Source of the DNA: Callorhinchus milii
Lineage: Eukaryota
DNA length: 64,000 nucleotides
Direction of reading: 5' to 3'
NCBI RefSeq assembly: GCF_018977255.1
Contig: NW_024704742.1
Span: forward strand, 45,758,001-45,822,000
The position numbers and the translations under genes were made by a program. How positions within the stretch are numbered: the stretch's first letter is position 1; each line of letters starts with the position of its first letter. Positions 3,188-64,000 of this stretch are shown here, piece after piece. Below the pieces are notes generated by a model. It saw only the letters and a program-made list of their open reading frames with translations, did not search any database and was not told the origin of the DNA.

Positions 3188-3543
3188 GGAGTCCTCTAGC
3201 TTTGTAGTTAGAGCACTCGCCTCACAAGCAAGAGGACCTAGGTTTGATTCCTGAGCCGGGCAAAACATTAGGCAAGTTTCCTTACCCCACACGCCTTTGT
3301 TTGTTAGTCGATTGGCAGATTGCTTTTCCTGGGGTAATAATCCCTTCAAAAAATGTTTTTAAAAAATAATAATAATTAGATCATTCAATCCACGATTGTT
3401 TGTGGGACATGCTGTGCGCAAATGGCTGCCGAGTTTTGCCCACAATATACACAGTCAATTCACTTTACAGTTTATTCTGTGAGGGCTTTGTGACATCTTA
3501 ACAATATGATAAAGTGCTATATCAAATGCAAGGATTATTATTA
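3188..3543 (+). mobile_element. tRNA-derived SINE with L2-type 3' end (long internal variant)
   Basis: GGAGTCC start, degenerate A/B boxes, core tgtttgtgggacatgctgtgcgcaaatggctgcc, tail atcaaatgcaaggattattatta. Confidence 0.88.
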
Positions 3544-4009: not shown

Positions 4010-4078
4010 ATTGCTTGCATTTGATATAGTACCTTTCATACCAGGAGGATGTCTCAAAGCACTTCACAGGATTTACTG
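4010..4078 (-). mobile_element. 3' end of an older SINE split by the L2 (continues 7918-~8000)
   Basis: Reverse complement of the SINE tail (ttgcatttgatatag...cttcacaggatttactg), resuming as taaagtg..caatttgcgcacaacaat after the L2. Confidence 0.8.
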
Positions 4079-4290
4079 GGCCTACTGACCCAGGTACTTA
4101 AACTCGACGCCGGAGCGAGTGCAGCCAGTCGGGGAGCGGCGACAGGAGAGCGCGGGGAGGAGCCTGGGCCTACTGACCCAGGTACTTAAACTCGACGCCG
4201 GAGCGAGTGCAGCTAGGCAGGGGAGGGAGGTGTGGGGACGGAGCGGGGAACTGCGACGTCATAGATTAGTTTTCAGGTGAGTGCGCGCGC
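4076..4290 (+). promoter_or_regulatory. CpG-rich L2 5' region with 88-bp-period tandem monomers (putative internal promoter)
   Basis: 50-bp identical direct repeat at 4076-4125 and 4164-4213; TATA-like TACTTAAA in each; CRE-like CGACGTCA 4254-4261; G4-type G runs 4220-4248. Confidence 0.6.
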
Positions 4291-7200
4291 ACAAAACAAA
4301 AAAAACAAAAAAACAAAAAAAAAAAAACCCTCCCCCCCCCCCCCCCCCCCCCCCAGGGCTCACATCAGAGCCCACTATGGTCCTGTTGGGTTCGATGCCC
4401 CAATCTACGGGATGATGCCATCCACCTGACCGCTCGCTCCCGGTCCCCGCGTGCGCACTATGGCTGCCGCTTTGACCCGAGCCCCCTCACCCCCTCCCTC
4501 CCTCCCCCCTCCTCTCTCCCCCCAAACCCTCCCCCTCTCCATCTATCCCGCTCTCTCCTCCTCTCTCTCCGTCCCTCTCGTCTTCTATCCCCACTTGACC
4601 CTCCCACAACCTCCCTCTGCTCCAGCCTGGGAATCCTCCGCCGGGCTCACCGCGGCACTCGGCGTTGGCTGTCCAGCAGCAGCCACACCGACTGCCCCAT
4701 TCCCCACCACACTCGCCACCCACCCCGGACACAGACCCGGGGAGTCAACCTCTCCTCCCTCATCCCCATCTCCCCACCCCTGCCTCACAACCTGGACCCC
4801 CCTCCCCTCCCACACACCCTTCTGTCAACCGCTCCCTCCACATCGGACTGCAAAATGTCCGCTCCCTCTGCAACAAGGCCCTGGTCATCAACGATCTCAT
4901 CCTTGATGAGAACGTTGATATCATGGCCTTGACAGAAACCTGGCTCACCCCAGGCGACACCTTCCCCCTCACGGAGGCCACGCCACCCGGCTACACCTCC
5001 CACCACATCCCCCGCCCCAACCGCCGTGGCGGTGGTGTTGCCCTTATCTCAAGGACACCACTTGCCCTATCCCCCTACTCCTCTGGCTCTTTCCCCTCCT
5101 TCGAGCACCTCACCCTCTCCCACCCCTCATTCCTCTCCCTTAAAATTCTCCTCCTCTACCGGCCCCCTAAAACCTCTCCCACCTTCATCTCTGACATTTC
5201 AACACTCCTCACATCTCTTTGCCTCTCCTCTGATCGCCTCATCATCCTGGGCGACTTTAACCTACACTTCACCCCCTCCTGCTCCATCTCCACAGACTTC
5301 TCTTCTCTTCTGGGCCAGTAGGCCCAGGCTCCTCCCCGCGCTCTCCTGTCGCCGCTTCCCTGCTCTCCTCACTCAACCTTTCCCTACACATAAACTCCCC
5401 CACTCACAGTCACGGCCACCCACTCGATTTGGTGATCACCCGGGGCCTCAGTGTCTCGGATGTCACTATTACCGACAAGGCCATCTCCGACCACTACTTC
5501 ATCTCCTTCACCACCTCCACCCCCCTCCCCACCTCCACCAGACCCACCACCATCTTCTACCGCCCTTGGAAGAAGTTACCCCCACAATCCCTAACCGATG
5601 CCTTGGAGTCCTCTGAACTCCTCTCCCTCTGGCCTTCAACCCTCACCGACCCCTCTTCTCCTCTCTCCCTCCTCCACAATATCCTCTCCTCCACACTCGA
5701 TACTCTTGCCCCCATCACTTCCCGCACTGTCTCCTACTCCCGCTCCTCCCCCTGGTACACCACCCACCTCCGCTCACTGAAATGCCAGGTGCGGGCTGCT
5801 GAGCGCACCTTTGTCAAATCTGGCCTAACGGTCCACCGACAAATCTGGCTGGACCTCCTCAAAATTTACCGCTCCACTCTAGCCTCGGCCAAGTCGTCCT
5901 TCTACTCCAGGATAATCCTGGAGGCGAAGAACAACCCCAGGCTACTGTTTTCCACCACATCCCGACTCCTCCGTCCCCCCCGCCACCCCGCGCAGGTCAT
6001 CTCCTCCAACCTTCACTGCGAGGAGATGCTGGATTTCCTTGAATCCAAGATCAAGGGAATCCGCTCCGCGGTCACTTCCCCTCCAACTTCCACCCACCAC
6101 CCACCCCTTCCCTCCCACACTCCTACCCATCCTCCCCTACACACCTTCGTACCCATTTCCCCACCCTCTGTCACTGAACTCATCCTATCCCTAAAACCAA
6201 CCACCTGCTCCCTTGACCCCATCCCCACTCCACTCCTTATCTCCCAGCTCCATTTTCTTGCCCCACACATCACTGACATCATAAACCTGTCCCTCTCCTC
6301 TGGCTCTGTCCCCATTCCATTAAAAACTGCCATCATCACGCCCACCCTGAAAAAACCCTCCCTTGATGCGTCGCAGCTATCAAGCTACCGGCCCATCTCC
6401 AACCTCCCCTTTCTCTCCAAGGTCTTGGAAAGAGTTGTCGCCTCCCAACTGCGCTCTTTCCTCTCCACCCATTCTCTTTTTGAACCCCTTCAGTCAGGTT
6501 TCCGTGCTGCTCATAGCACAGAAACTGCCCTGGTCAAGGTCACCAATGATATCCTGACCATCTGTGACCAGGGCTCCCTCTGTCTCCTCGTCCTCCTCGA
6601 CCTATCGGCAGCATTCGATACGGTCGACCACGCTATCCTACTCCACCGCTTGTCCTCCCACCTCAACCTTCAAGGCACTGTCCTTGAATGGTTTAGGTCG
6701 TACCTTTCCCACCGTCTTCACTTCGTCTCAACGAATGGCTTCTCCTCCACCCCCCGTACTGTCTCATGTGGTGTCCCTCAGGGCTCTGTCCTCGGTCCCC
6801 TCCTCTTCACCCTCTATATGCTCCCCCTTGGTGACATCATCCGCAAACATGGGGTTAACTTCCACATGTATGCGGATGACACCCAACTCTACCTTTCCTC
6901 CTCTACTCTCAACTCCACGACCACCGATGTCCTGACAGCCTGCCTGTCCGACATCGAGTCCTGGACGAGAGACAACTTTCTTCAGCTCAACGTGCGAAAA
7001 ACCGAGGCCCTCCTGATTGGCTCACGTCAGCGCCTCCGCACCTCAGGCGCTGACACCATCAGCATCCAAGGCTGCACTCTCCACCTCTCAAAGCCAGTCA
7101 GGAACCTCGGCGTTTTGTTCGACCCTGAGCTGTCCTTTCTCCCTCACATCCGCACCACAACTGGCACCGCCTTCCATCACCTCCGGAATATCGCCAGACT

Positions 7201-7917
7201 ACGGCACTACCTCACCCCTCACGCTGCTGAAACCCTGGTTCACGCCTTTGTCACCTCAAGGCTGGACTATGGGAACTCTCTCCTCGCCGGCCTTCCCGCC
7301 ACCTCCCTCCACAAGCTGCAGGTCATTCAGAACTCTGCAGCTCGTGTACTGTCCCGCACCAGGCTTCGGGACCACATCACTCCCACCCTCGCTCGCCTCC
7401 ACTGGCTCCCCATCCCCCAGAGGATTGATTTCAAGATCCTCATCCTCACCTACAAGGCCATTCACGGCCTTGCTCCCTCCTACCTCTCCAACCTACTATC
7501 CCCCTACCTACCTGCCCGTACCCTCCGTTCCTCTGGCTCCGGTCTGCTCCACGTCCCCCGCCCCAACCGCCCTACTATCGGTGGTCGGGCCTTCAGCCTC
7601 TCAGCCCCAGGCTCTGGAACTCCATCCCCCAGTGCCTTCGCCTTGCTTCCTCCCTTTCCTCCTTCAAGGCCGGTCTCAAAACCTTTCTCTTTGACCGTGC
7701 CTTCAGCTCCCCTCTCGACTCTCTTCCTCCTCCTCGCTCCCTCCCTTCCCTCCCCTCACCCTGACCATTTCCCCCTCCTCTCTCCCTCCCTTCCCTCCCC
7801 TCACCCTGACCATTTCCCCCCTGCTCGGGTCATGACGCAACTGTGCAGCGCCTTGGGACGTCCTCCTGACGTGAAAGGCGCTCTATAAATGGAATCTTGT
7901 TGTTGTTGTTGTTGTTG
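4079..7917 (+). mobile_element. Young, probably near-full-length L2-clade LINE inserted into a minus-strand SINE
   Basis: APE endonuclease and RT motifs; 3' stem-loop followed by (TTG)n tail; TTACTG on both sides (4073-4078, 7918-7923); the flanks rejoin into the SINE tail (..cttcacaggatttactg|taaagtg..). Confidence 0.93.
4357..7764 (+). pseudogene. L2 ORF2-type polyprotein (APE endonuclease + reverse transcriptase), about 1,100 codons, interrupted
   Basis: [71 protein letters not shown], and (shifted frame) [14 protein letters not shown]. Breaks: 1-nt frameshift near 4800, 53-bp insertion 5310-5362 carrying TAG 5319-5321, 1-nt frameshift near 7605. Confidence 0.9.
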
Positions 7918-9484
7918 TTACTGTAAAGTGCAGAGACTGGGTATTTTGCAGGCAATTTGCGCACAACAATATCCTACAAAGAACCAAGAAGTGCATGACC
8001 AAAGTCATGAGTGACAAATGACTAAATTATGCCTGCTGAAATATTTTTCTTCTTCACACACAAAACTTGTCATTGCGGGAATGATTCGCAAATGCAAAAG
8101 AAGCCAGAATTATGTTTTTTTTAGCAGAAACTGGGTCAGATGGTTCAATTTTATGATTTTAATAAGATTTGTTTAAATTATCGGACACAGCAGCCTCAAC
8201 GATTTGTGACTGGGAGGAATTCCTCTGCTACACGCTGAATGAAAAGTGCTAATTGCTTTTTACATATAGTATAGAGAGCAAATTAATGTGTGCCTATTGT
8301 AAAATTATCAGTATAATTATCAGTCCGTGAGTTTTGATTAGAATGTTAACACTTTGAATTGCTAAAAAACCAATGACTTGTTCCCACTGTTATTTTGTAT
8401 TGCAACTCTCATGACCATTAGATTTACTCAGATGACTACGGTTCTGTTTCGAGCAGACATTTCCATCAGTCTGAGTCTCGTAATGTAACAGTACCTTTTC
8501 CATCAGTTTTTAGTTTTGTTTAATCCTGTAATTCAACCTAGAATGTCTGAATAATTAGAATTTCAGATAGACGCACCTTACCCTGGTATCCCACTGCTGA
8601 CTCATTTTCTCCATTTAATCTGCCATTGTTGTCAAAATTCTCCCTGGAGTTAATTCAATTTGGAACAATCTCAGAGGATTTCGAACAGCCATGTGAATAT
8701 CTTTAATGCCATTTAAGAAAAATAGAGAAAGGCCAGATTGTAACTCGGAAACTAAACTTTATTTTTTATGAATCGAAAATTGTCAGGTGTTTTGAAGCAA
8801 AGTCATTATTCAAAATTTACCATGTTGCTGCTTACAGATGTCCTGATGCTAACTGTGTTGTCTGTGTTATTCAGTAAAGCTTACAACAATAACCCTTGCA
8901 TTTGATATACTGCATTTCTCACATTGGAAAGTACTTCATACGATTTACTCTAAAGTGTCGGGACTACATTTTGTGGAAACAACACACTAGATCGATCAAC
9001 AACAACAAATTGCATTTATAAAGTGCCTCTAAAATTGGGAGGACAACCCAAAGCACTGAAGGGTTTACATCCAAGCTGGAGATTGGAGTCAAGTGGGGTG
9101 GATGGCAAGGGGGATGGGGGTGGGAAATTGACCAAAAGCATCATCAAAGGAACGGGCCTTGAAGGAGGCAAGCAAGGGGGTAACATGGAAGGGCTCCGTG
9201 ATAGAGTTCTCGAGGGTGAAAACAGAAAGGTTTAAGGCCAGAGCTCCAATGGTGGGCAGGCAGTGCAGGAAATATGGAGAAGTTTAATATAAACAAGACA
9301 AAAATAATGCAGTGGTCAAAAGATGCAGTCGGTGATGTGATAATTATCACAAGAACAGAAAATATTGTTTTATTTTGTCCACAATGACAGGTTTGGGCTG
9401 AATGCTCGCACTTCTGAAGAATCATTTTGACATCAGCCTGTCACAACTGAATTGGTGCATTCTTACATTTTTATTACATTTTGT

Positions 9485-20334: not shown

Positions 20335-21689
20335 CTCCAATCAGGTTTCCGTGCTGCCCACAGCACGGACAGTGCTCTAGTCAAAGTCACAAACAACATC
20401 CTGACCATGTTTGACAAGGACTCCCTCTGCCTCCTTGTCCTCCTCAACCTCTCCGCTGCCTTTGACACCGTGGACCACTCCTCCACTGCCTCTCCTCCCA
20501 CCTCAAACTTCAACGTTGTGTCCCTGACTGGCTCAGGTCCTACCTTCCATACTGCCTCCACTTCGTCTCAGCAAACCGCTTCTCCTCCAGCCCCTGCACT
20601 GTCTCGTGCGGTGTTTCTCAGGGCTCTGTCCTTGGGCCCCTCCTCTTCACCCTCTACATGCTCCCCCTTGTTGACATCATCCGCAGACATGGGGTAAATT
20701 TCCACATGTGTGCGGATGACACCCAACTCTATTTCTGCCTCCACCCTCAACTCCAGGACTACTGGCGTCCTGACCTACTGCCTATCCGACATCAAGTCCT
20801 GGACGAGGGCTAACTTTCTCCAACTCAACGTCAGCAAGACCGAGGCCCTCCTGATTGTCTCGCACCAGTGCCTCCGCACCTCGGGCGCTGGCAGCATCAG
20901 CCTCCACGTCTGCACACTCAACCTCACTAAGCCAGTCAGGAACCTGGGTGTCTTGTTTGACCCTGAACTGTCCTTTCTCCCCCACATCCACTCCATGACC
21001 GGCACTGCCTACCACCACCTCCACAACATTACCAGTCTCCGCCACTGCCTCACCCCTCAGGCTGCCGAAACCCTCACCCACGCATTCGTCACCTCAAGGC
21101 TCGATTATGGGAACTCCCTCCTCATCAGCCTTCCCAACTCTTCCCTCCACAAGCTGCAGATCATCCAAAACTCTGCAGCTCGTGCACTCTCACTCACCAG
21201 GATCCGCGACCCCATCACTCCCACCCTCGCCCGACTCCACTGGCTCCCCATCCCCCAGAGGATCGATTCAAGATCTTCGTCCTCACCTTTAAGGCCATTC
21301 ATGGCCTCGCCCCCTCCTAGCTCTCTGACCTGTTGACTCCCTACCAACCTGCCCGTTCCCTCCGTTCATCGGGCTCTGGCCTGCTCCATGTGTCCTGCCC
21401 AACCCACCCTACCATCGGTGGCCGGGCTTTCAGCCTCTCTGCCCCCACTCTCTGAAACTCCACCTCACAATCCCTTCGCCTCGCTTCCTCCCTTGCCTCC
21501 TTCAAGGTCGATCTCAAGACCTTCTCTTCGATCGTGCCTTTGGTCTCCCTCCCACCTCTCTGCCTTCCCTCACCCCTACACCACCCCTCCCCCATGCTCG
21601 GGTCTCAACACCTGACTGTTCAACGCTTTGGGACGTCCTCCCGACATGAAAGGCGCTCTATAAATGTAATTTGATTATTGTTGTTGTTG
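20335..21689 (+). mobile_element. 5'-truncated degenerate L2 (RT C-terminal half)
   Basis: [38 protein letters not shown] with frameshifts; stem-loop and (TTG)n tail. Confidence 0.93.
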
Positions 21690-33800: not shown

Positions 33801-36800
33801 GGCACACTTGAGTCCTGCTCATAACATAAACTGCAGGAGATGGTTTCAAGAGCAGAGAAATTCATACCAATGCAACAGGAACACAGCTGGTACAAATGGC
33901 ACAATGCTCAGTTGGTTTCTGAGGTCAATTCGAAGGTCATATAGTCTCCAAATTGAGTATTCTAAGGAGGCTTGCACCCATCAGGAAGAACAAAATTTCA
34001 GTCGGGCTTGGATTTAAATTCAGCTAAAAGCGATAAAGGTACAGTATAGTGACTCGCAATGGCATTCAGCCGCATTAAGAAGTTGCAAATTTGACAAAAT
34101 CCAGTGCTGTAATCAATCTGAAGCAAGATCATTCTAGTTCAGTTCATTTAATGTTCACTAAACTTGGTTAGGTTCCAATACAGTAAACACCAAATCCATA
34201 GCCTTTTTGCTCCAATCTGTGCAGACTGATCTGCACTTCCCAAATGTACATATATAACCAGTTCAGTATTTCTATCATAATAATTCTGAAACTGGCTCCA
34301 GTGGTAGAGAAAATACAATTACTTGGGAGCAATCATCTTTTATTTGTAGCTATGGTAATACAGTAGTTTATGGAAATTGCTCATCTTTGATTTTCAACCA
34401 ATCTGTTCAGTACATATTTTTAAACCGGAATCAAGCATTGCTTTTAATAAAAATAATCCTTTTGATATAGCATTGTCGAGATAACTCAAAGCGCTTCACA
34501 GGATATACAATAAGTGGTTTGACTGTATATTTTGAGGGCAAAATCATTTCAGCTAGATATCAAGAACCACTTTCACTAATGCCAGATCTCATGGCAGTGC
34601 ACGGGTTATGATCATTGCCAGTTTATGTATCATATGTTGAAAATCAATCCTTTACTCCTGGTTATCAAAATAATATTGATATTTATGATTAGATTTTTTC
34701 ATGCAATCTTATGATTCTTATATACTATAATATGACACTGTTTGCATTTGTGGAAGCTCTGTTTATTGAAAGAGGAATTTTAAGGTCTAACCTTAACGTG
34801 CCAGTCTCCTCCTAACATCCTGTTTCGAACTATCTTAATAAAAAAAATGATATATGGTCTGACTTTTACCTCTTCTTCCTAAATGCTGAGTTTAAAGGTC
34901 AAAGGATGAAAGAGTCCATGGACAGTGCACTCACACCAACAGTTGTAAAAATGCTAATAACCTTGGCAACAGTTCCACGGCTATTAGGAATGCTATAAGC
35001 CACAGATAAAGAGCGAGCAAATGTTTTCCTTATTAGTATTCTGTAAAGCGAAGAGGTTCAGAAATACTCTGAAATATCTGTGAAGATTTGCAAAACTGCC
35101 ATTTATTTTCAAATTATTGGATTACCAATTGACCAGGAAAGGAATGACGTTTTGTAGATTATGTAATTTTGCAACCCGAAGACGCATTTTGCTATTCTCA
35201 AGAAATACACAAGTTATAACTAAGACTTGCTTGCATATGTTCCAGGGGCATGGCCTTGTCGAAAAGATTATCCATGCAACTCCAAGCTTCCGCAGATTAA
35301 GTTCTGGAATAGTCTGAACCTAACAGTTTGAAGCTATCCATTAAAGACCCATTACAGCATTTAAAAAAGGGATAATGTTACTGGGATGTTAACTTTCATG
35401 GGAAAGGAAAAAAAAGAAAGTTCTCTTGTAATCTATTAGCAACAATCAATAGTAAGCACATAAAGGTGATCTGCAAAAGTATAGATCCTGCATCAATTAT
35501 TTGAAAGACAATGAGAGATCATTTTGTACAAAGGGAAATTTGGAGATATCTTCTTGACTTTTTTTTACATAAAACACCCTCTCCCTCAACCTCTCCCAAC
35601 CTAGGTGACTTCAACTTTCACTTCAACCCCTCCTGCTCTACCTCTACTGACATCTCCTCCCTCCCCTCCTCCCTCAACCTCTCCCTCCACATCCGCTCCA
35701 CCACCCATGTCAGTGGTTACACCTTCGACCTGGTGATCACTCAGGGCCTCACCGTCTCGGACCTCCCCATCATCGACAAAGTCATCTTGGATCATCACTT
35801 CATCTCCCTTAACTCCTCAATCCCTCTCCCCACTGCTACCCAATCCACCTCCTCCATGCCTGGAAAACAACCTCTGCCCCCCCAGCTCCCACTCTCTTCT
35901 CTCTGCTGCCTTAGATCATCTGAACTTCTTCCACTCTGGGCTTCCTCCCGCAATGATGTATCCTCCTTGGTTACTCTTCTTCACAAATCCCTCTCCACCA
36001 CTCTCGATGCCCTTGCTCCCCACACCTCCCAAACTGTCTCCTATTCATAAAAGTCATCCTCGTACACAAGCCACCACTACTCCCTTCTTGCACAGGTGTG
36101 TGCCGCTGAACGCACCTGGCTCAAATCCAACTTAACGGTCCATTGGCATATCTGGCTGGACCTTATCAAATCTTACCACTCCACTCTCGCCTCTGCTAAA
36201 TCGTTGTTCTATTCCAAGATATTCTTGGAAGCCAAGTACAACCCCAGGCTCCTTTTCTCCATCACCAACCATCTCCTTCACCCATCCTTTCATGCCTTGC
36301 CCATCCACTCCTCCAATGCCAACTGCGAGGTTATGCTGGACTTCCTCAAAACCAAAGTCGAGGGGATCTGCTCAGCTGCCTCTGTCCTTCCATCTACTAC
36401 CCCCTCCCCATTTCCCCCTTGCATCCTGGCCCCTATCCATCCCTCCCTCCACACCTTTGAACCTGTCTCACACTTCTCTCTCACCACCACTATAACCTGC
36501 ATGAAACCAACCACCTGCTCCCTCGAACCCATCCCTACCCTTCTCCTTACCTCCCAGCTTCATCTCCTTGTCCCTCTACTCACATACACCTCTCCCTGTC
36601 CACTGGCACCATTCTCACCCTTTAAAAACAGACACCATCACTCCTATCCTTAGAAAACCCTCCTTGGACTCATCCCTGCTCTCAAACTACCGCTCCATCT
36701 CCAAACATCCTTTCCTTTCCAAGGTCCTGGAGCCAGTTGTTACTTCCCAGCTTTGCTCCTTCCTCTCCCACCATTCCCTTCACGAACCCCGCCAATCGGA

Positions 36801-37266
36801 TTTGTGTGCAACCCACAGCACAGAAACAGCATTGTTCAAAGTGACAAAAGACATTCGGTCCATCTGTGACCAGGACTCCATCTGCCTCATCGTTCTCCTT
36901 GACCTCTCTGCTGCCTTCGACACTGTTGACCACTCTATCCTTCGCCACTACCTCTCCTTTCACCTCATCCTTTATGGTTCTGTCCTTCAATGGTTAAGAT
37001 CCTATATCTCACATCGTCTCCACTTCATCTCCATAAACAGTTTCTCCTCTAGTCCCCGCAATGTCTCATGTGGCATTCCTCAGGACCCTGTCCTTGGTCC
37101 AGTTCTCTTCAATATCTATATGCTCCCTCTTGGTGACACCATCCGCAAACAGGGGTCAATTTCCACGTGTATGTGAATGACACCCAACTCTATCTCTCTG
37201 CCTCCACCCTCGACTCCAGGACCACTGCTGTCCTGACACAATGTCTGTCCGATATCAAGTGCTGGA

Positions 37267-37994
37267 TGTTAGAAAATAAAATCAGCCAAATCTGTAAGGA
37301 AATAACGCTAATTCCTCTACCCAGATATCAGACTGTTTTATTATTATTCGTTCGTTATTCCCCAATATCCCGATGGGTCAGACCAAAGGCCGGTACAATC
37401 AACAGACCTTATAACAGAAAAACACCACTATAGATATCTCGAGTTCAAGAGTTCAACACTGTGTCTTTCCAGCACACAAGCTTGATTCTTCATGCTTTCA
37501 GTCTTCTTGCTTACAGCTTTCAATCTTCCATCTGATATCCTCAGTCTTAGTGTTTCCAGCTCTCAGTCTTCCATCTCCGTACCCTTGTCTCCGCAGCCCG
37601 GGATGGCCCCATATCCTTGGCTCCGCGACCCGGGACAGCTCCATCTCCTGTATCCTTGTCTCCATGACCCGGGACGGCTCCATCTCCCGTATCCTTGTCT
37701 CCGTGACCCGGGACGGCCCCGTACACAAAGTTATCGGAACTCTTATACCAATGTTCATCCAATCATGGTGCGGACATTAGATCACCTGTCGAAATCATGC
37801 CGGGTTCACGTGAACACCTCATGGGGTGTACGTGCCTCACACACACAAACACACTGTCCTTGAGACAGTCCGTTATCTCGTGTACATGCAGGGAGTTTCA
37901 GTCCAGCTGCCCACAACACACTTAACTTAAAAGTTAACCCGTTCGCAACATCTATTGTGATTCTAACATTATACAAAAAGTGTAAATTCTAACA
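37267..37994 (-). repeat. 3' LTR
   Basis: Direct repeat of 38724-39458, preceded on the minus strand by the PPT. Confidence 0.9.
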
Positions 37995-38005
37995 GTCCCC
38001 ACCTT
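37995..38005 (-). other. Polypurine tract
   Basis: Minus strand AAGGTGGGGAC abutting the TG of the 3' LTR. Confidence 0.75.
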
Positions 38006-38699
38006 GATACCGAATGAACATGAGATATCACAAAATTACAAAAAGAATATAATACAAAATCAGAAAAATAATACAAGGTTACACAACCTGATAGTACAAG
38101 AAGACAGATAATACAAAGTCAGAAAAATAGTACAAGGTCACACAACCTGGGAGGGAGGATGGTACTTCCAGGAGGCAAACTCTCTTAATGAGCTTCACAG
38201 TTTCACAGCTCAGTCGTAAGGTTATTTCCAGCGATCACAGTCACAATTGAAATACAACAACATTCAATTACTGTCGGACCTGGTCCCTCTCCTTACCCGG
38301 AGGTAATAGAGGATTTCCCACTGACTGTTCGAACGCCCGAAAGTTACTCCATCACTTACGCAATTTCCACATCGACACACAATATATCAACATATTCGAA
38401 TGTCGTTCACACGCACATCAGCGCACTTAAATGCCTGGTGCGATCGCCAGCGTACTCAAATGCCTGACCGTTATCGAAGCTTGGTCCCGACTACACCTTA
38501 GTGTGGCACCCACAGCTTACTCAAAACTACTGTCCTCTACTTGATATATTCAAACATTCAAGGAGACAATCACAAACTTCCTAGGTAATATAGTCAAATA
38601 TTCAGCTTTAAAAACAATCAGACGTTGATGTATTCAAACATGCAACATCATTAAACGTTCGTCAAGGCTTGATTGTACCTCCCTTGTGTGTTTACTGGG

Positions 38700-38719
38700 G
38701 AATCCTGCCGACTACGCCA
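38700..38719 (-). other. Primer binding site complementary to tRNA-Ser 3' end
   Basis: Minus strand TGGCGTAGTCGGCAGGATTC, 4 nt from the LTR; plus strand matches the vertebrate tRNA-Ser end GAATCCTGCCGACTACGCCA. Confidence 0.88.
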
Positions 38720-38723
38720 AAAC

Positions 38724-39458
38724 TGTTAGAAAATAAAATCAGCCAAATCTGTAAGGAAATAACGCTAATTCCTCTAACCAGATATCAGACTGTTTTATTA
38801 TTATTCGTTCGTTATTCCCCAATATCCCGATGGGTCAGACCAAAGGCCGGTACAATCAACAGACCTTATAACAGAATAACACCACTATAGATATCTCGAG
38901 TTCCAAGAGTTCAACACTGTGTCTTTCCAGCACACAAGCTTGATTCTTCATGCTTTCAGTCTTCTTGCTTACAGCTTTCAATCTTCCATCTGATATCCTC
39001 AGTCTTAGTGTTTACAGCTCTCAGTCTTCCATCTCCGTACCCTTGTCTCCGCAGCCCGAGACGGTCCCATCTCCCGTATCCTTGTCTTCGCGACCCGGGA
39101 CGGCTCCATCTCCCGTATCCTTGTCTTCGCGACCCGGGACGGCTCCATCTCCTGTATCCTTGTCTCCGTGACCCGGGACGGCCCCGTAAATAAAGTTATC
39201 GGAACTCTTATACCGATCTTCGTCCAATCATGGTGCGGACATTAGATCACCTGTCGAAATCCTGCTGGATTCACGTGAACACTCATGGGGTGTACGTGCC
39301 TCACACACACAAACACACTGTCCTTGAGACAGTTCGTTATCTCGTGTACGTGCAGAGAGTTTCAGTCCAGCTGCCCACAACACACTTAACTTAAAAGTTA
39401 ACCCGTTCGCAACATCTATTGTGATTCTAACATTATACAAAAAGTGTAAATTCTAACA
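38724..39458 (-). repeat. 5' LTR
   Basis: TG..CA ends with 8-bp inverted termini; minus-strand ATTGG then TATAAG (~39207-39228); AATAAA near 38794-38799; 39-bp tandem array. Confidence 0.9.
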
Positions 39459-41459
39459 TGAATGAGAGCTAACTTTCTTCAATTGAACATCAACAAGACC
39501 GAAGCTGTCTTGATTGGCTCCAGTCAGTGCCTCCACAACTCAAGCGCTGACAGCATCACCATCCAAGGATGCACACTCTACCTTATTAAGCCAGTCCGGA
39601 ACCTTGGCATCTTGTTTGACCCTCTACTTTCCTTTCTACCCCATTTGGTACCATGACCTGCTCTGCCTTCCCCACCTCCGCAACATTGCCCAGCTCTGTC
39701 CCTGTCTCTCTCACACTGCAGGCCACCAAAATCCTCATACACGCATTCGTAACATCCAGGCTTGACTACGCAAATTCCTTGAGTGTTGGCCTCCCCAATT
39801 GCTCCCTCTATAGGTTGAAGATCATCCAGAACTCTGAAGCCTGTGTCCTCTCCCGCACCAAGCTCCATTATCCTATCATCCCCATCCTCACGCGACTCCG
39901 CTGACTTCCCATCACACAGAGGATACAATTCAAGATCATGGTCCTCACCTTCAAAGCCCTCCATGGCCTTGCTGCCCCCCTACCTCTGCAACCTCCTAAC
40001 TACCTACCAACCTGCCCGCTCCCTCTGCTCAGCCGGCTCCAGCCTGCTTCACGTCCACCATTGGCGGGCAGGCCTTCTGTCATTCTGCCCCCACCCTCTG
40101 GAACTCCATCCCACAGTCCCTCCACCTTGACCCCTTGATTGCCTCCTTCAAGACCCATCACCCTCATTCTCCCACTGCCCTCCCCGCCTGACCTCCATCT
40201 TGGATCTGAAACACTGACTGTCCAGTGCCTTGGGACATCCTACCGAGGTGAAAGGCACTATACAAATGTAATTTTGTTGTTGTTTATTTCTGATCTGGTA
40301 TGACAGTAGGCTCAAGTGTATGTCTCAGCTACTAAAGCATATCTGATCACATTCAAGCCAGATTTCCAATATTTCTTAATACGAAATGTGCAATTAATGA
40401 ATTTCTAAAACATAGAATAAGCTAAATAATCTATTAGCGGTAGAGTTTCTCCTCCACTTTAGTGAGCTTCCATATTAAAACATTTTAAAAACTCAAAGTC
40501 CAGATTTGTATATGAGCATTGAAAGTAATATGTTTATAATACAATCCAATTTACATTTTTATGGTGCCTTTTGAATCGGAGAGACATCTCAAAGAGCTTA
40601 ACACTGCAGGATGGGCAACTGTGCTGGGGGTGGAAGTTGAAGGAGGTGGGGAGAGAAAAGATGACTGAAAGACTGTCAAAGATAATATATAATATTATAT
40701 TTCTGAAATTTAGAAACTGTTCCACGTATATAACCCACCTGACTCTCAGTCATTGAAATATAACTGGAAGAAAGTATTTTATCTTGTCACGATTGCCCAA
40801 GTGTTTCAGTTCTCAGTATTCATTCTGCTTTAATAAATCAAAGGCTAAGACTATTGAATAATAGTTCTACTGGACGTTTGTCAGTACTACTCTTCTGCTG
40901 ACCCATCATGAGACATTGGAGTTAGCCATATGCTGATTGCTAAAAATTTAATAATAATCATTTCATTTGCCATAGCACCTTATTGCATTGTTGACTGCTA
41001 GACCTACTGAAAAGTGGTATCCCACAGCAATGTCCTGCGAACAGCCATGATATTTTTTGGGGGATTGTAGATCAGGACACTGGTAGAAATTCCCTTGTCT
41101 TTTCAAATAGTGCCATGAGATCTTTAACATCCACTTGAACAGGCAGACGGGACCTTAGTTTAACATCTCAAAATATATTTTATTTATGTCCTTTTGATGC
41201 AAACATCCGTTAGTAAAGGCATAACAAAAATAATCAATATTTTAATGATCAAAGGATGATAGATCACATTGTTGAGTCACTCAGAGGAATGAACTTTTGT
41301 CAGATTTCTCTTCCTCCCATTGCCCAATTAAGAATGTCAGAGCATAGCTGCAATCTAAGTTATGCATATAGATCAATGACTAGATTTGAATGTTGCTTTC
41401 CAATTTGGGATGATTGCTTTGTATGAATGTAAGTATTTTATAAATAGTAATTATCTATA

Positions 41460-52054: not shown

Positions 52055-52680
52055 AATAACAACTTGCACTTATATAGCGCCCTCCACTCAGGGTAGCGTC
52101 TCAGTGCGCTTAACAGTGGCGGAGCCTGACTCTGAACGGGAGGTAGGGGCGGTGGTAGGGGAGGTGGCCGTAAGGTGCGGTTGAAGAGGAAGGTTTTCAG
52201 GCAGTGCTTGAAAAAGTGGAGAAAGTGGGCAAGGCCGAAGGTTTGAGGGAGAGTGTTTCAGAGTTTTGGTGCATAGTGGCTGAAAGTGCGCCCTCCGATG
52301 GTGGGGCGGAGGGTTTGAGGGATGAGCAGGAATCGGGTGCCAGTTGAGCAGAGGCACTATGTGGTGGAGTGGGAAGTGAGGAGGTCGGAGAGATAGGGAG
52401 GTGCCAGAAAGTGAAGGGATTTGAACACGAGTGTGAGGATCTTGACGCTGATCCGTTCGGTGATGGGGAGTCAGTGGAGCCTGGTCAGAACTGGTGAGAT
52501 ATGGGTGTGGAGTTTGTATGTGGGCAAGTATGTGGGTGAAAGAGTTCTGAATGAGCTGGATCTTTTGAATAGCGGACTCTGGAGATCGGCGAGGAGTGGG
52601 TTTGAGTAATCCCAGCTAAAGGCGACAAACGCATACACAAGGGTTTCGGCTTCATTTGGGGTAAGATACGTTCAGAGGCA
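52055..52680 (-). mobile_element. L2 3' fragment
   Basis: Reverse-complement tail and G-rich RT C-terminal remnants. Confidence 0.8.
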
Positions 52681-59937: not shown

Positions 59938-62900
59938 CAATAACAACAACAACTTAGATTTATATAGCGCCCTCCACACCGGACGGCATCTCAGAGCGCT
60001 TCACAGTAACAGACCCCGGAGCCAAGCCGGGGAGAGGAGGAGGAGGGTGACTAAAGGCACGGTCGAAAAGAAAGGTCTTCAGCAGGAACCTGAAAATAGG
60101 AAGAAAGGGAACGAGGGGAAGGGAGTGAGGAAGGGAATTCCAGAGCCTCGGGGCGTAATGGCTGAAGCCACGGCCGCCAAGGGTGGGTGGAGGACTCAGA
60201 GGATGAGAAGGAGGCCAGACCCGGAGGAACGAAAGCAAAGGGTACTGTTTTGAGGAGAGAGGAGTTCAGAGAGGTAGAGGGGTGCAGAGAAGTGGAGGGA
60301 CTTCAATACAAGGGTGAGGATCTTGAAGTTGATCTTCTCTGGGATAGGGAGTCAGTACAGTCTGGCAAGGACTGGGGAGATCGAGGAGCAGAGTTTCGTA
60401 CGGGTGAGAATGCGGGTGGCAGAGTTATGAATGATTTGGATTTTATGGATGGTAGTGGATGGGAGACCGGCGAGGAGAGCATTAGAGTAGTCCAGCCGAG
60501 ACGTGACAAAGGCATAGACCAGGGTTTCAGCGGCTTCCTGAGAGAGGTTTTGGCAGAGACGGGCAATGCATCGGAGGTGGAAGAAGGCGGTGCTGGTGAG
60601 GGACCAGATGTGGGGGAGAAAGGATAATTGGGGATTGAACCTGACGCCTAGGTTGCGTACGGGTTTGGAGAGTTTTAGGGGGAGGTTGGGTAGGTGGAGG
60701 TGGTGAGAGCCGTGAGATTTTAGATGTTGACGAGAGCCAAAGAGTATGGGAGTATGGCTTCCATCTTGTCAACGTTCAGCTGAAGGAAATTTGCACTGAT
60801 CCAGCCCCTGAGATTTGACAGGCAGGCTGACAGAACATCAGGGGACTGGGGGTCGCAAAGATAGGTGGAAAAATAGAGTTGAGTGTCGTCCACGTACCTC
60901 TGTGGATGATATCCCGAAGAGGGAGCATATAGATCAGAAAGAGGAGGGCGTCAAGGATGGATCCTTGGGGTAACCCGCAGGTAACCGGGTGAGAGAGGGA
61001 GGAGAAGCCATTTGTGCAGATGTACTGCTGGCGATTTGTGAGGTAGGATTCGAACCAGGCGAGTGTGGTCCCACTAAGGTGGATGATGGAGCAAAGGCGG
61101 TGGAGGAGGATGGCGTGATCGACTGTGTTGAACGCCGCAGCGAGGTCCAGGAGGACAAGGAGGCACAGATAGAGAGGATATCGTTTGTGACTTTCACAAG
61201 CGCAGTCTCTGTACTGTGGGCAGGGCGGAAACCGGACTGGAGGGGTTTGAAGAGGGAATGGGAGGAGAGGTGGGCGTGAAGTTGATTATCAACAATGCGT
61301 TCTAGAACTTTTGCAAGGAAGGGCAGGTTTGAAATAAGGCATTAGTGGCCGGGGTTTGAGGGATCTAGGGAAGGTTTCTTGAGGAGGGGGTGATGACAGC
61401 AGTTTTGAGGGGGGCAGGGATTGATCCAGAGGAGAGGGACTGTTTGATGACATTAGCCAGTAGTGGGCAGAGGAGGGGGAACTGGGTGACAGCAGTTTGG
61501 TGGGGATGGGGTCGAGGCAGCAGGTGGTGGGTTTCATGGAGGAGATGGTGGGTGAGAGGGAGGCGGGAGAGATCGGGGATGAAGGAATGTAGGATGGGGG
61601 TCGTGGTAGGAGCAGATGATGGGGAGGGTGAGGAGGACAGAGAGGGCGTGGTGGTGGGTGACAAGAGGCAGGTGGATGAGGCTGACTGGCGGATGTTGTG
61701 AATTTTAGATGTAAAGAAGTCCATGACCTCCTCGCACTTGGCATTTGATGTGAAGATTGAAGAGGCCTGAGGGGGTGCATGGAGGAGGTAGCGAGTGGTG
61801 GAAAAAAGGATTTTAGGGTTGCATTTAGCCTCCAAGATGATGTTGGAGTAGAAGACCATTTTTGCATGTGTCAAAGAACGGCGGTAGCTGTAGAGATGCT
61901 CGAACCACAGTTGGTGGTGAACTGTCAGGCCAGTTTTCCGCCATCTGTGCTCGAGCAGCCAGATTTTGGTTTTTAGGCGGCGGAGATAGTTGTTATACCA
62001 GGGGGATTGGGTGGGTTTAGAGATGGTCCTGGATTTCGGGGGGAACGAGGGATTTGAAGGTGGAGGAGAGGCGATCATGGAGCAGCTGGACGGCTACTTC
62101 AGGATCTCCTCGAGTGTAAGGCCAGAGGGATAGGATGTTTGATGAAGTGAGGGCTTTTGTGAGGGTCTCAGGTGGTAGCCTTTTCCATGGGTGGTAGAGG
62201 ATGGTTGAGGGCTTGGTGAAGGAGAGAAGGATGTGAGAGGAGAAGGAGATGAGGAAGTGGTAATAATGAGGTCAAGGGCATGACCACGGTTGTGGGTTGG
62301 TGAATTTATATGAAGAGTGAAGTTTGGGGAGGAGAGGAGGACAGTGAAGTCGGAAGAAGTGATGCAATGGGAGTTTAGGTGGAGGTTAAAATCGCCCATT
62401 ATGAGCAGGCGCTCGGAGCAGAGGGACAGGGAAGAGAGGAGAGTAGAGATGTCTGTGTGGAAGTAGCCGGGCGGCTTAGGGGGGCGGTAGACAAGGAGGA
62501 TTTTCAATGGGAGAGAGGGGTGGAAGAGAGTGATGTGCTCGAAGGAGGGGAAGCAGCCAGAGGAGTAGGGGGTAAGACCAAGGGAGGCTTTGGAGATGAG
62601 GGCCACCCTACCGCATGTTGGTTTGGACGGGGGGTGTGGTGGAAGGTGTAGCCTGGAGAGGAGGTTTCCACAAGGGGGATGGGGTCATTGGGGGAGAACC
62701 AGGTTTCAGTGAGCCCAAGAATGTCAAGGTGCTCGTCCAGGATGAGGTCATGGATTGTGAGGACTTTGTTTGAGAGGGAACGGATGTTTTGGAGGGATAT
62801 GCGGGTGGGTTTGCTGGAGGGAGGGGAGGGAGGAGAGAGTGAACCGGAGAGGATTTTAGGGTATACGGGAGAGATGGTTGTGGAGAGTAGTGTGAGTGGA

Positions 62901-63262
62901 GAGTTGGGGAGGGTACGTATGAGGGAGGGGGAAGTTGGGTTTGCCTTAAGGAGGCGGTTTGTGCAGATGGAGTGAATGATTGGACACTTGGGGTTGCTGC
63001 TCTGGGTCGACCAGTGCCAGGAGCCACGGTGGGCCCGGCGGAGAATGCCCAGGCTGGAGCAGAGGGAAATGGTGATGGGGTCAAGGAGAGAGAGAAGGCG
63101 GGGAGGGCAGTGGGAGAGAAGGACAGAGTGGGAGTAGCGGATAGAAGGGGGTGGGAGGAGAGACATTTGGAGTGGTGGGGGAGGCTTGGGTCGTGACGGC
63201 AGCCAAAACGCGCACGCAGAGACCGGGAGCGAGCGATCAGCGGGACGGCATCAGCCCTCAGG
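59938..63262 (-). mobile_element. Long degenerate L2 of a second family (different 3' stem-loop)
   Basis: Minus-strand LGILRRAHRG, QNIRSL, LTETW, GDFN, SPWYN, KVTNDIL in broken frames; tail gagatgccgtccggtgtggagggcgctatataaatctaagttgttg. Confidence 0.92.
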
Positions 63263-64000
63263 CTCAGATAAAATGTACTGTATAATGTACACAAGTGAGA
63301 GCAATTGTGGGAAATGGAAAATGAAGATGCATGTTGTATGAAGGAGGTTTGTTTATTTAGAATGATAGAACCATACCAAATCATGGCACAGGAGAAGGCC
63401 ATTCAACCCGTTGTGTCTGTGCCAGAATCCAAGGAAAGGGCAGGTAAATGCGAGTGAATGGAATGCTGTTGTGGCAAGGATTGCCATTTGAGCAAGAATT
63501 CTTCTTCCTCTTTGTAAAGCATTTTAAATTAAAAGTGCCCCTGAATCCAAGGTGCTTAACTGGATGTTTGCAAATGGCTACATCTGGGTCACTTCGGTTA
63601 ATCATCCCGTTACGTTTCAACCTTCTTAGCATGAATTCCCATTATACATCCCCATAACCATGGCTAGTAATTTCACTGACAGGGGGATTTCACTTTGCTG
63701 CAGTCTTGAAACACACAGTAGAATATGTTTACTGATGAGAACTTGCAGAGCAGCATGTTACATACTTTTAAGAATTAAATTCATTATTCATGTGGGGATA
63801 TTCAAAATGAATGCAAAATAATTCGCCCATAAAACACACAGTCTCTCCACTTATCCTATGCAATAATTTGAGAGATTATCTTCTGAAAGGCACTATACCA
63901 AATGTAAGTATTATTTTTATTATTATAAAAGGACCACATTGTTTTGTTTGCCCACAGTCAGTTGAGATCTCTTGACTATGATTTTGCAATATATTTACAA

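Follow-up and report, generated by a model that had tools for sequence, protein, structure and literature searches.

Templated extension in cis and quasi-palindrome template-switch mutations have been described (PMC4912351, PMC7954356, PMC8794818, PMC7202029), and reverse-complement inserts are reported as the signature of snap-back synthesis (PMC5068794). For polymerase theta, the published accounts give priming from a single base to a short match, priming that is reiterated, and errors at a rate of roughly 1 in 30 (PMC5068794; PMC4912351). Here we describe a 53-nt insertion within a long interspersed nuclear element (LINE) of Callorhinchus milii. The element lies in a stretch of 64,000 nt (assembly GCF_018977255.1, contig NW_024704742.1, called C1 below, positions 45,758,001 to 45,822,000 of the forward strand), which is referred to below as the window and whose own numbering, starting at its first letter, is used throughout. 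The main part of the insertion, a 47-nt patch, is an inverted copy of the junction between the 88-bp monomers at the 5′ end of that very element. It probably records a template switch in cis that was real and happened once, the settings at the DNA level and during retrotransposition being taken together.

The patch shares several features with the templated insertions of alternative end joining (polymerase theta, snap-back in cis), i.e. a reverse-complement copy of a nearby sequence of the same molecule, a short, imperfect microhomology at one of its two junctions, a short filler suggestive of repeated priming, and an error within the copied tract (PMC5068794; PMC4912351). Inserts made by polymerase theta are, as far as these sources describe them, mostly ~10 bp long with a template within ~10 bp of the break, whereas the patch in the window is 47 nt long, comes from 1.1 kb away and is accompanied by no deletion. 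Quasi-palindrome mutations of the Ripley type and four-point short-range template switches of the Loytynoja type offer another parallel, with copying of one arm from the other that perfects an inverted repeat and with an inverted product (PMC7202029, PMC7954356, PMC8794818). These events span tens to hundreds of bases and usually replace sequence; in contrast, the window patch moved 1.1 kb and is a net insertion, and its correction sits at the end of a 47-nt patch. As in the twin priming, 5′ inversions and reverse transcriptase (RT) template switches reported for LINE-1, an inverted piece of the element lies within a LINE copy and may be bordered by microhomology or small duplications (PMC11702581). 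Twin priming, however, inverts the 5′ part of the insertion itself, while the element described here has a complete 5′ end in direct orientation, and the inverted piece is an additional duplicate of 5′ untranslated region (UTR) sequence within the open reading frame (ORF). In fork stalling and template switching and microhomology-mediated break-induced replication (FoSTeS/MMBIR), a nascent strand switches by microhomology to a nearby inverted template and back, much as proposed here for the window patch, although these mechanisms are usually invoked for kilobase-to-megabase rearrangements and the scar in the window measures 53 nt.

The patch adds a further case to a class of mutation that is already known. 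It represents no novel mechanism and is no evidence for self-moving monomers. Its interest lies in being a clean specimen from nature: the rare variant of the local monomer allows the template to be placed on the same molecule, and the single copying difference is found where switching through a hairpin predicts it.

Structure and boundaries of the insertion

The following parts were distinguished at the insertion site:

5306..5358, + strand: insertion of 53 nt compared with the family; any start from 5302 to 5306 is equivalent, owing to an ambiguity of 4 nt (CTTC); absent in 24/24 aligned copies
5306..5309 (up to 8 nt, 5302-5309), + strand: junction filler TCTT, which repeats the adjacent CT-rich target and is not derived from the monomer
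5310..5356, + strand: templated tract of 47 nt, which matches 4135-4181 in reverse complement at all positions but 5315
5310..5327, + strand: perfect hairpin CTGGGCC-AGTA-GGCCCAG, DNA energy -8.0 kcal/mol
5355..5360, + strand: right-junction microhomology, target CTTCCC versus monomer antisense CTCCCC (5/6, CT exact)

The insertion is real and private to the window copy. In every one of the 24 other family copies aligned across the site, exactly 53 nt are missing and the empty site has the same sequence. Forty genome places were scored, and the insert was present in the window copy alone; among the 39 others, 37 join both flanks across the empty site, one contains the right flank only and one corresponds to the local monomer. 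A single occurrence of the 53-mer was found in the window, against 0 expected from 100 shuffles.

An inverted copy of the 5′ monomer junction had already been recognized in the initial annotation, and a direct count agrees with it: after reverse complementation, 5310-5360 shows 2 mismatches to 4131-4181 over the 51 nt. A repeat search of the window gave inverted-repeat arms at 4117-4181 and 5310-5374 (65 nt, 88% complementary). The limits of the insert need to be corrected, however. It had been placed at 5310-5362, 53 nt in all, whereas the match to the monomers spans 51 nt only, and the block that has to be removed to give exactly the empty site of the family runs from 5302-5306 to 5354-5358. 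In the register table at the left junction, the family site reads CTTCTCTTC and the window copy reads CTTCTCTTCTCTT. The statement that removal of 53 bp restores the coding sequence holds in that the 22-residue peptide is found in 24/24 copies, but excision of 5310-5362 itself leaves 2 synonymous differences, and the L2 near 35640, cited as the matching copy, is a diverged, 5′-truncated relative.

The perfect hairpin noted at the end of the insert was located at 5310-5327. The tetranucleotide CTTC stands on both sides of the patch, and neither a clean target duplication nor a tail was found there. As 46 of the 47 nt match the reverse complement of 4135-4181 and the tract is absent from 24/24 family copies, the earlier view of the insert as a polymerase-made copy of monomer sequence in antisense orientation can be retained.

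Origin of the template

The sequences that correspond to the patch at the 5′ end of the element are as follows:

4076..4163, + strand: 5′ monomer 1, 88 bp, a direct repeat at 88-bp spacing; the same period is seen in the arrays of other copies
4164..4251, + strand: 5′ monomer 2, the last monomer, leading into unique 5′ UTR; its second half is diverged from monomer 1
4135..4181, + strand: template tract, consisting of the end of monomer 1 and the hairpin at the start of monomer 2, with the rare variant G4141, A4142, G4148
4164..4181, + strand: quasi-palindrome CTGGGCC-TACT-GACCCAG with a C·A mismatch at 4169/4176; DNA energy -3.2 kcal/mol in sense and -4.5 kcal/mol in antisense

The patch holds the complement of the rare bases of the local monomer at 4141, 4142 and 4148. 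When the 991-Mb assembly was searched, the 51-mer at up to 1 mismatch and the 47-mer at 0 mismatches each found the insert alone, so no exact source monomer for the patch exists in this assembly. With up to 1 mismatch allowed, the 47-mer was found at 12 places, namely the insert and 11 monomers, one of which is the local monomer at 4135-4181; all 11 differ from the insert at one and the same base. The conserved junction 32-mer occurs 436 times in the assembly, and the local variant accounts for 11 of these 436 (~2.5%). Among 72 monomer junctions from 29 other loci, none lies within 1 mismatch of the insert (5 junctions have 2 mismatches, 33 have 3, 30 have 4, 3 have 5 and 1 has 7). Because the patch carries the rare variant of the local monomer, a template on the same molecule, or on its source RNA, is ~40 times better supported than a random monomer.

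It had been proposed that the two mismatches hint at a monomer variant not present locally. This does not agree with the data: the assembly contains no closer match than the local monomer, which agrees at 46/47 positions, and of the two mismatches, that at 5357 is target sequence and that at 5315 is a change which perfects the hairpin.

The patch creates an inverted repeat of 47-51 nt with arms 1128 nt apart. The predicted RNA pairing of the two arms is -122.7 kcal/mol, and an intramolecular RNA duplex with the 5′ UTR would be thermodynamically plausible.

Correction of the monomer hairpin

A quasi-palindromic hairpin opens each monomer of the family. In the insert position 5315 is C, while copying of A4176 would give T. 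This change converts the imperfect 7-bp stem into a perfect one and shifts the DNA energy of the hairpin from -4.5 to -8.0 kcal/mol. The arm on the junction side of the patch hairpin is exactly complementary to the inner arm and not to the template's own arm; it is this arm, adjoining the junction, that has been corrected. An imperfect inverted repeat has therefore been perfected at the position that the opposite arm predicts. The uncorrected A/T base, in place of the G/C of the insert, is present in all sampled monomers (72/72) and in all those of the same variant (11/11). The perfect 18-mer occurs at two places in the assembly, the insert and one ordinary array monomer of a different variant on C995.

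At the window copy's rate of private substitution (6-7 in ~3,500-3,800 nt), random changes expected in 47 nt amount to ~0.08, and 2 of the 141 possible single changes perfect the stem, so that by post hoc arithmetic a chance origin of the correction would be of the order of 0.002. Because the sole true difference, at 5315, perfects the 7-bp stem of the monomer, the simplest reading is that the polymerase passed into or out of the monomer template via the hairpin, copying arm from arm, as is classical for quasi-palindrome template switches (PMC7202029, PMC7954356, PMC8794818).

Search for other ectopic copies

The possibility of further ectopic insertions had been raised; exact and near-exact match searches revealed no second copy in the assembly, and they would miss diverged or shorter patches. 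No monomer opposite in orientation to its element was found in the 29 other loci (0/29). The junction 28-mer without its normal next base occurs at two places in the assembly, the insert and an array monomer on C47 in which a G-to-A point change accounts for the difference. Among the first 100 of the 436 junction places listed, no pair on opposite strands is closer than ~13 kb. Multiple dispersed copies with the same ends, as expected of a mobile element, were thus not seen in the exact or near-exact searches.

Proposed mechanism and alternative explanations

In the model proposed here, a single template-switch event would have placed 47 nt of the monomer junction (4135-4181), as its reverse complement, into the endonuclease region 1.1 kb downstream. 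A growing DNA 3′ end would leave its template at ~5305/5359 and anneal to the monomer region in inverted register. The quasi-palindrome would be the point of entry or of exit, with one of its arms templated by the other, and the return to the original template would use microhomology. One possible setting is a stalled replication fork, with an event of the FoSTeS/MMBIR type in which the nascent strand passes to the other template strand ~1.1 kb away and then back. Another is a resected break end that would undergo snap-back synthesis and would then be closed by microhomology end joining. We infer the enzyme and the timing of the switch, while the patch, the filler, the microhomology and the corrected hairpin are present in the DNA as described above. 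A switch at the DNA level, after integration of the element, is our tentative preference, at somewhat under an even chance, and we hold it only slightly above a switch during retrotransposition.

Several observations weigh against a DNA-level switch of this kind. In C. elegans, ~85% of polymerase theta templates lie within 10 bp of the break, the mean insert is ~10 bp, only ~3% of templates are distant, and snap-back forms a minor class, according to the data given in PMC5068794. By comparison with that organism, a 47-nt patch from 1.1 kb away is atypical of the polymerase theta pathway. The left junction has no microhomology and carries a filler of 4-8 nt instead. The window copy has more private changes than most of its relatives (6 substitutions and 2 indels, versus 0-3 substitutions in 26/28 others), a load that would also fit an error-prone birth. 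Finally, no listed piece in the contigs of 4 public runs bridges either junction of the insert.

The same switch in cis may have occurred during the retrotransposition that made the window copy, which would then have been dead on arrival; we consider this a real but lesser possibility. The plus-strand polymerase (the element's RT or a host enzyme) would leave the complementary DNA (cDNA) at ~5305, begin at the 3′ foot of the 5′-UTR hairpin to copy 47 nt, either from displaced sense RNA or from the nascent strand, and return by microhomology. The source RNA of the window copy has the same rare monomer variant by definition, so this setting accounts for the identity of the template just as well. 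The extreme youth and probable activity of the family, with 12/20 sampled full-length frames intact and many copies without private substitutions, also speak for it, as does the unusual number of lesions in the window copy (the private 53-nt insertion and 6-nt deletion, and three 1-nt deletions). Experimental LINE-1 insertions showing internal switches of template, inversions and cDNA hairpins formed by self-annealing are reported (PMC11702581), and second-strand synthesis in LINE insertion is treated in PMC7617806. On the other hand, no second inverted monomer patch was found (0/29 loci), and no other junction in the assembly ends at the hairpin foot, save for one point-mutated array monomer. 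RT jumping is best documented at template ends rather than internally. RNA editing and subsequent reverse transcription would likewise produce a sense A-to-G change at the A·C mismatch of the stem, in line with the preference of ADAR, but a 7-bp stem is short for RNA editing, and only 1/7 private substitutions is A-to-G, with no sign of hyper-editing. A more specific version, which we regard as unlikely, would make the patch a fossil of the element's RT jumping from cDNA to the 5′-UTR hairpin of its own RNA in second-strand synthesis; the A-to-G change would come from fold-back of the nascent strand or from adenosine-to-inosine (A-to-I) editing, and the monomer hairpin would be a preferred landing site in an active LINE family.

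The remaining explanations appear much weaker than either form of the switch in cis. It is improbable that the 53 nt are chimeric or mis-polished and absent from the animal. The family does comprise near-identical copies in the thousands (7452 first-look candidates), the three 1-nt deletions fall in C runs, as is typical of long-read errors, and no public contig was seen across the junctions. However, contigs collapse repeats, and because of this their silence says nothing about the locus; the contigs of the same 4 runs contain the family empty form (a joint skipping the 53 nt, 5301->5355) in 4/4 cases, together with monomer-array joints. The public-run search gave no run with at least half of the sampled words, and none of those listed was registered as RNA; no alternate haplotig was retrieved with the 980-nt downstream flank, which finds the locus alone, plus short matches to an old repeat in its first 82 nt. 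An artefact is also at odds with the structured junctions, with the private substitutions of the window copy on both sides of the patch and with the presence of the rare variant of the local monomer rather than the common one, and a collapsed consensus would yield the common empty form, not a unique inverted patch. A template in trans (antisense monomer RNA or the monomer of another element, of a variant absent locally) is less probable still. It would account for the two positions in 51 at which the local monomer seems not to match, and monomer arrays are abundant (436 exact junction 32-mers), but the assembly contains no monomer that matches better than the local one, one mismatch belongs to the target while the other is absent from the 72 sampled and the 11 same-variant monomers, and a random monomer has the local variant only ~2.5% of the time. 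Least credible of all is self-insertion of the monomer, whole or in part, as a small mobile unit, which had been suggested. The patch does start exactly at the hairpin foot and has CTTC on both sides; yet it straddles two monomers and is not one unit, no other ectopic copy, tail or clean target duplication was detected, and every monomer is co-oriented with its element in 29/29 sampled loci. Moreover, the second perfect-hairpin 18-mer sits inside a normal array, and just the insert and one point-mutated array monomer have the junction without its normal next base.

Three further candidates were rejected. Gene conversion from a neighbouring inverted copy does not apply, since the sequences flanking the ORF site and those flanking the monomer tract are not homologous. 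A short retrotransposed cDNA is not compatible with a patch that has neither the family 3′ end nor a tail. Finally, twin-priming 5′ inversion fails in that, the added patch aside, the element is collinear with other family copies between monomer 1 and the tail.

Damage to the coding frame

The endonuclease frame of the window copy is closed within the patch:

5319..5321, + strand: in-frame TAG closing the endonuclease frame 4599..5321

The insert was correctly described as lying in the endonuclease domain and supplying this stop, which ends the frame 4599..5321 after its match to positions 4-156 of the 225 of Exo_endo_phos. The endonuclease domain is split by the patch, its remainder being found in the +2 frame beyond the stop. 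Compared with the family frame, the window copy is further short of one nucleotide in each of the C-runs at 4530 and 4770, of one at 7608 and, in frame, of 6 nt at 6118. Each of the 1-nt deletions (4530, 4770, 7608) is shared with only one to a few other copies, and they may represent real slippage or homopolymer errors of the assembly. The endonuclease frame is indeed broken by the insert, but "knocked out by", as the initial annotation put it, is too strong because three further 1-nt frameshifts are present. The window copy has accumulated 6-7 private substitutions in ~3,500-3,800 nt and 2 private indels. The insertion is one private scar in an already damaged repeat copy and has no consequence for the host.

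The host element and its family

The general features of the element are listed below:

~4076-7920, + strand: LINE with monomers, coding region for endonuclease (EN) and RT, and tail
4460..7762, + strand: span of the family EN+RT frame; 1096 codons in intact copies, broken in the window copy
7897..7920, + strand: (TTG)n 3′ tail and end of the element, where the family alignments stop

In the coordinates of the window copy the intact family frame extends over 4430-7762, with the ATG at 4460. The frame 4599..5321 matches Pfam Exo_endo_phos (E 7.1e-14, profile positions 4-156 of 225), and the downstream frame 5261..7888 matches Pfam RVT_1 (E 9.4e-37). In the family, a domain of the apurinic/apyrimidinic endonuclease (APE) type is followed by a reverse transcriptase domain in one long frame, and many copies exist, including 5′-truncated ones with a common 3′ end and a microsatellite 3′ tail. 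Judged by its sequence, the element is a non-long terminal repeat (non-LTR) retrotransposon, i.e. a LINE, encoding EN and RT and of the L2/CR1-like kind; "L2" is the label of the initial annotation, the class being assigned here from domain order, copy pattern and tail.

A whole-element search of the assembly gave 7452 first-look candidates, 40 of which were scored for identity and ends. The scored full-length copies are 97% identical to the element (gaps counted) and the 5′-truncated ones 99%; their starts vary, while all end at ~3840 of its 3845 nt. The uninterrupted 1096-codon EN+RT frame is kept by 12/20 sampled full-length copies. In an alignment of the window copy and 28 others, private substitutions number mostly 0-3 per ~3,500 nt, and many copies have 0. 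The family is abundant and very young, and these features suggest that it is active at present or was so until very recently. Some copies carry long tandem arrays of the 88-bp monomer at their 5′ ends (C13:9078185-9080226, with >20 units; C1:47281850-47282956; C1:137746840-137748015), while the window copy has two monomers. Very young, with many open frames and 88-bp 5′ monomer arrays, the family is perhaps more useful to specialists than the scar itself. If more self-templated inverted patches exist, it would be a useful record of template switching by LINE polymerases or host repair.

The contigs of one run, guessed to be RNA, carry the family empty form at high word depth, and on this ground the family may be transcribed, the RNA type of that run being itself a guess. 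Within the 5′ UTR (4290-4356) an A-rich run is followed by a long C-run, the length of which differs among copies; here the window copy exceeds the majority by 10-11 A-rich bases and by 3 C. Just 3′ of the family stop codon, at 7724-7813, there is a 45-bp tandem duplication (96% identical), apparently family-wide, as the alignment shows no indel at this point. Inverted copies of an older dispersed repeat flank the element (3436-3471 and 7920-7955), and the first 82 nt downstream (7921-8002) have many genome matches of 74-92% identity. Diverged, related C-rich LINE fragments were found elsewhere in the window at 20698-21336 (+), 35505-39700 (+), 52088-52615 (-) and 60166-63402 (-); where compared, these four are 66-75% identical to the element described here.

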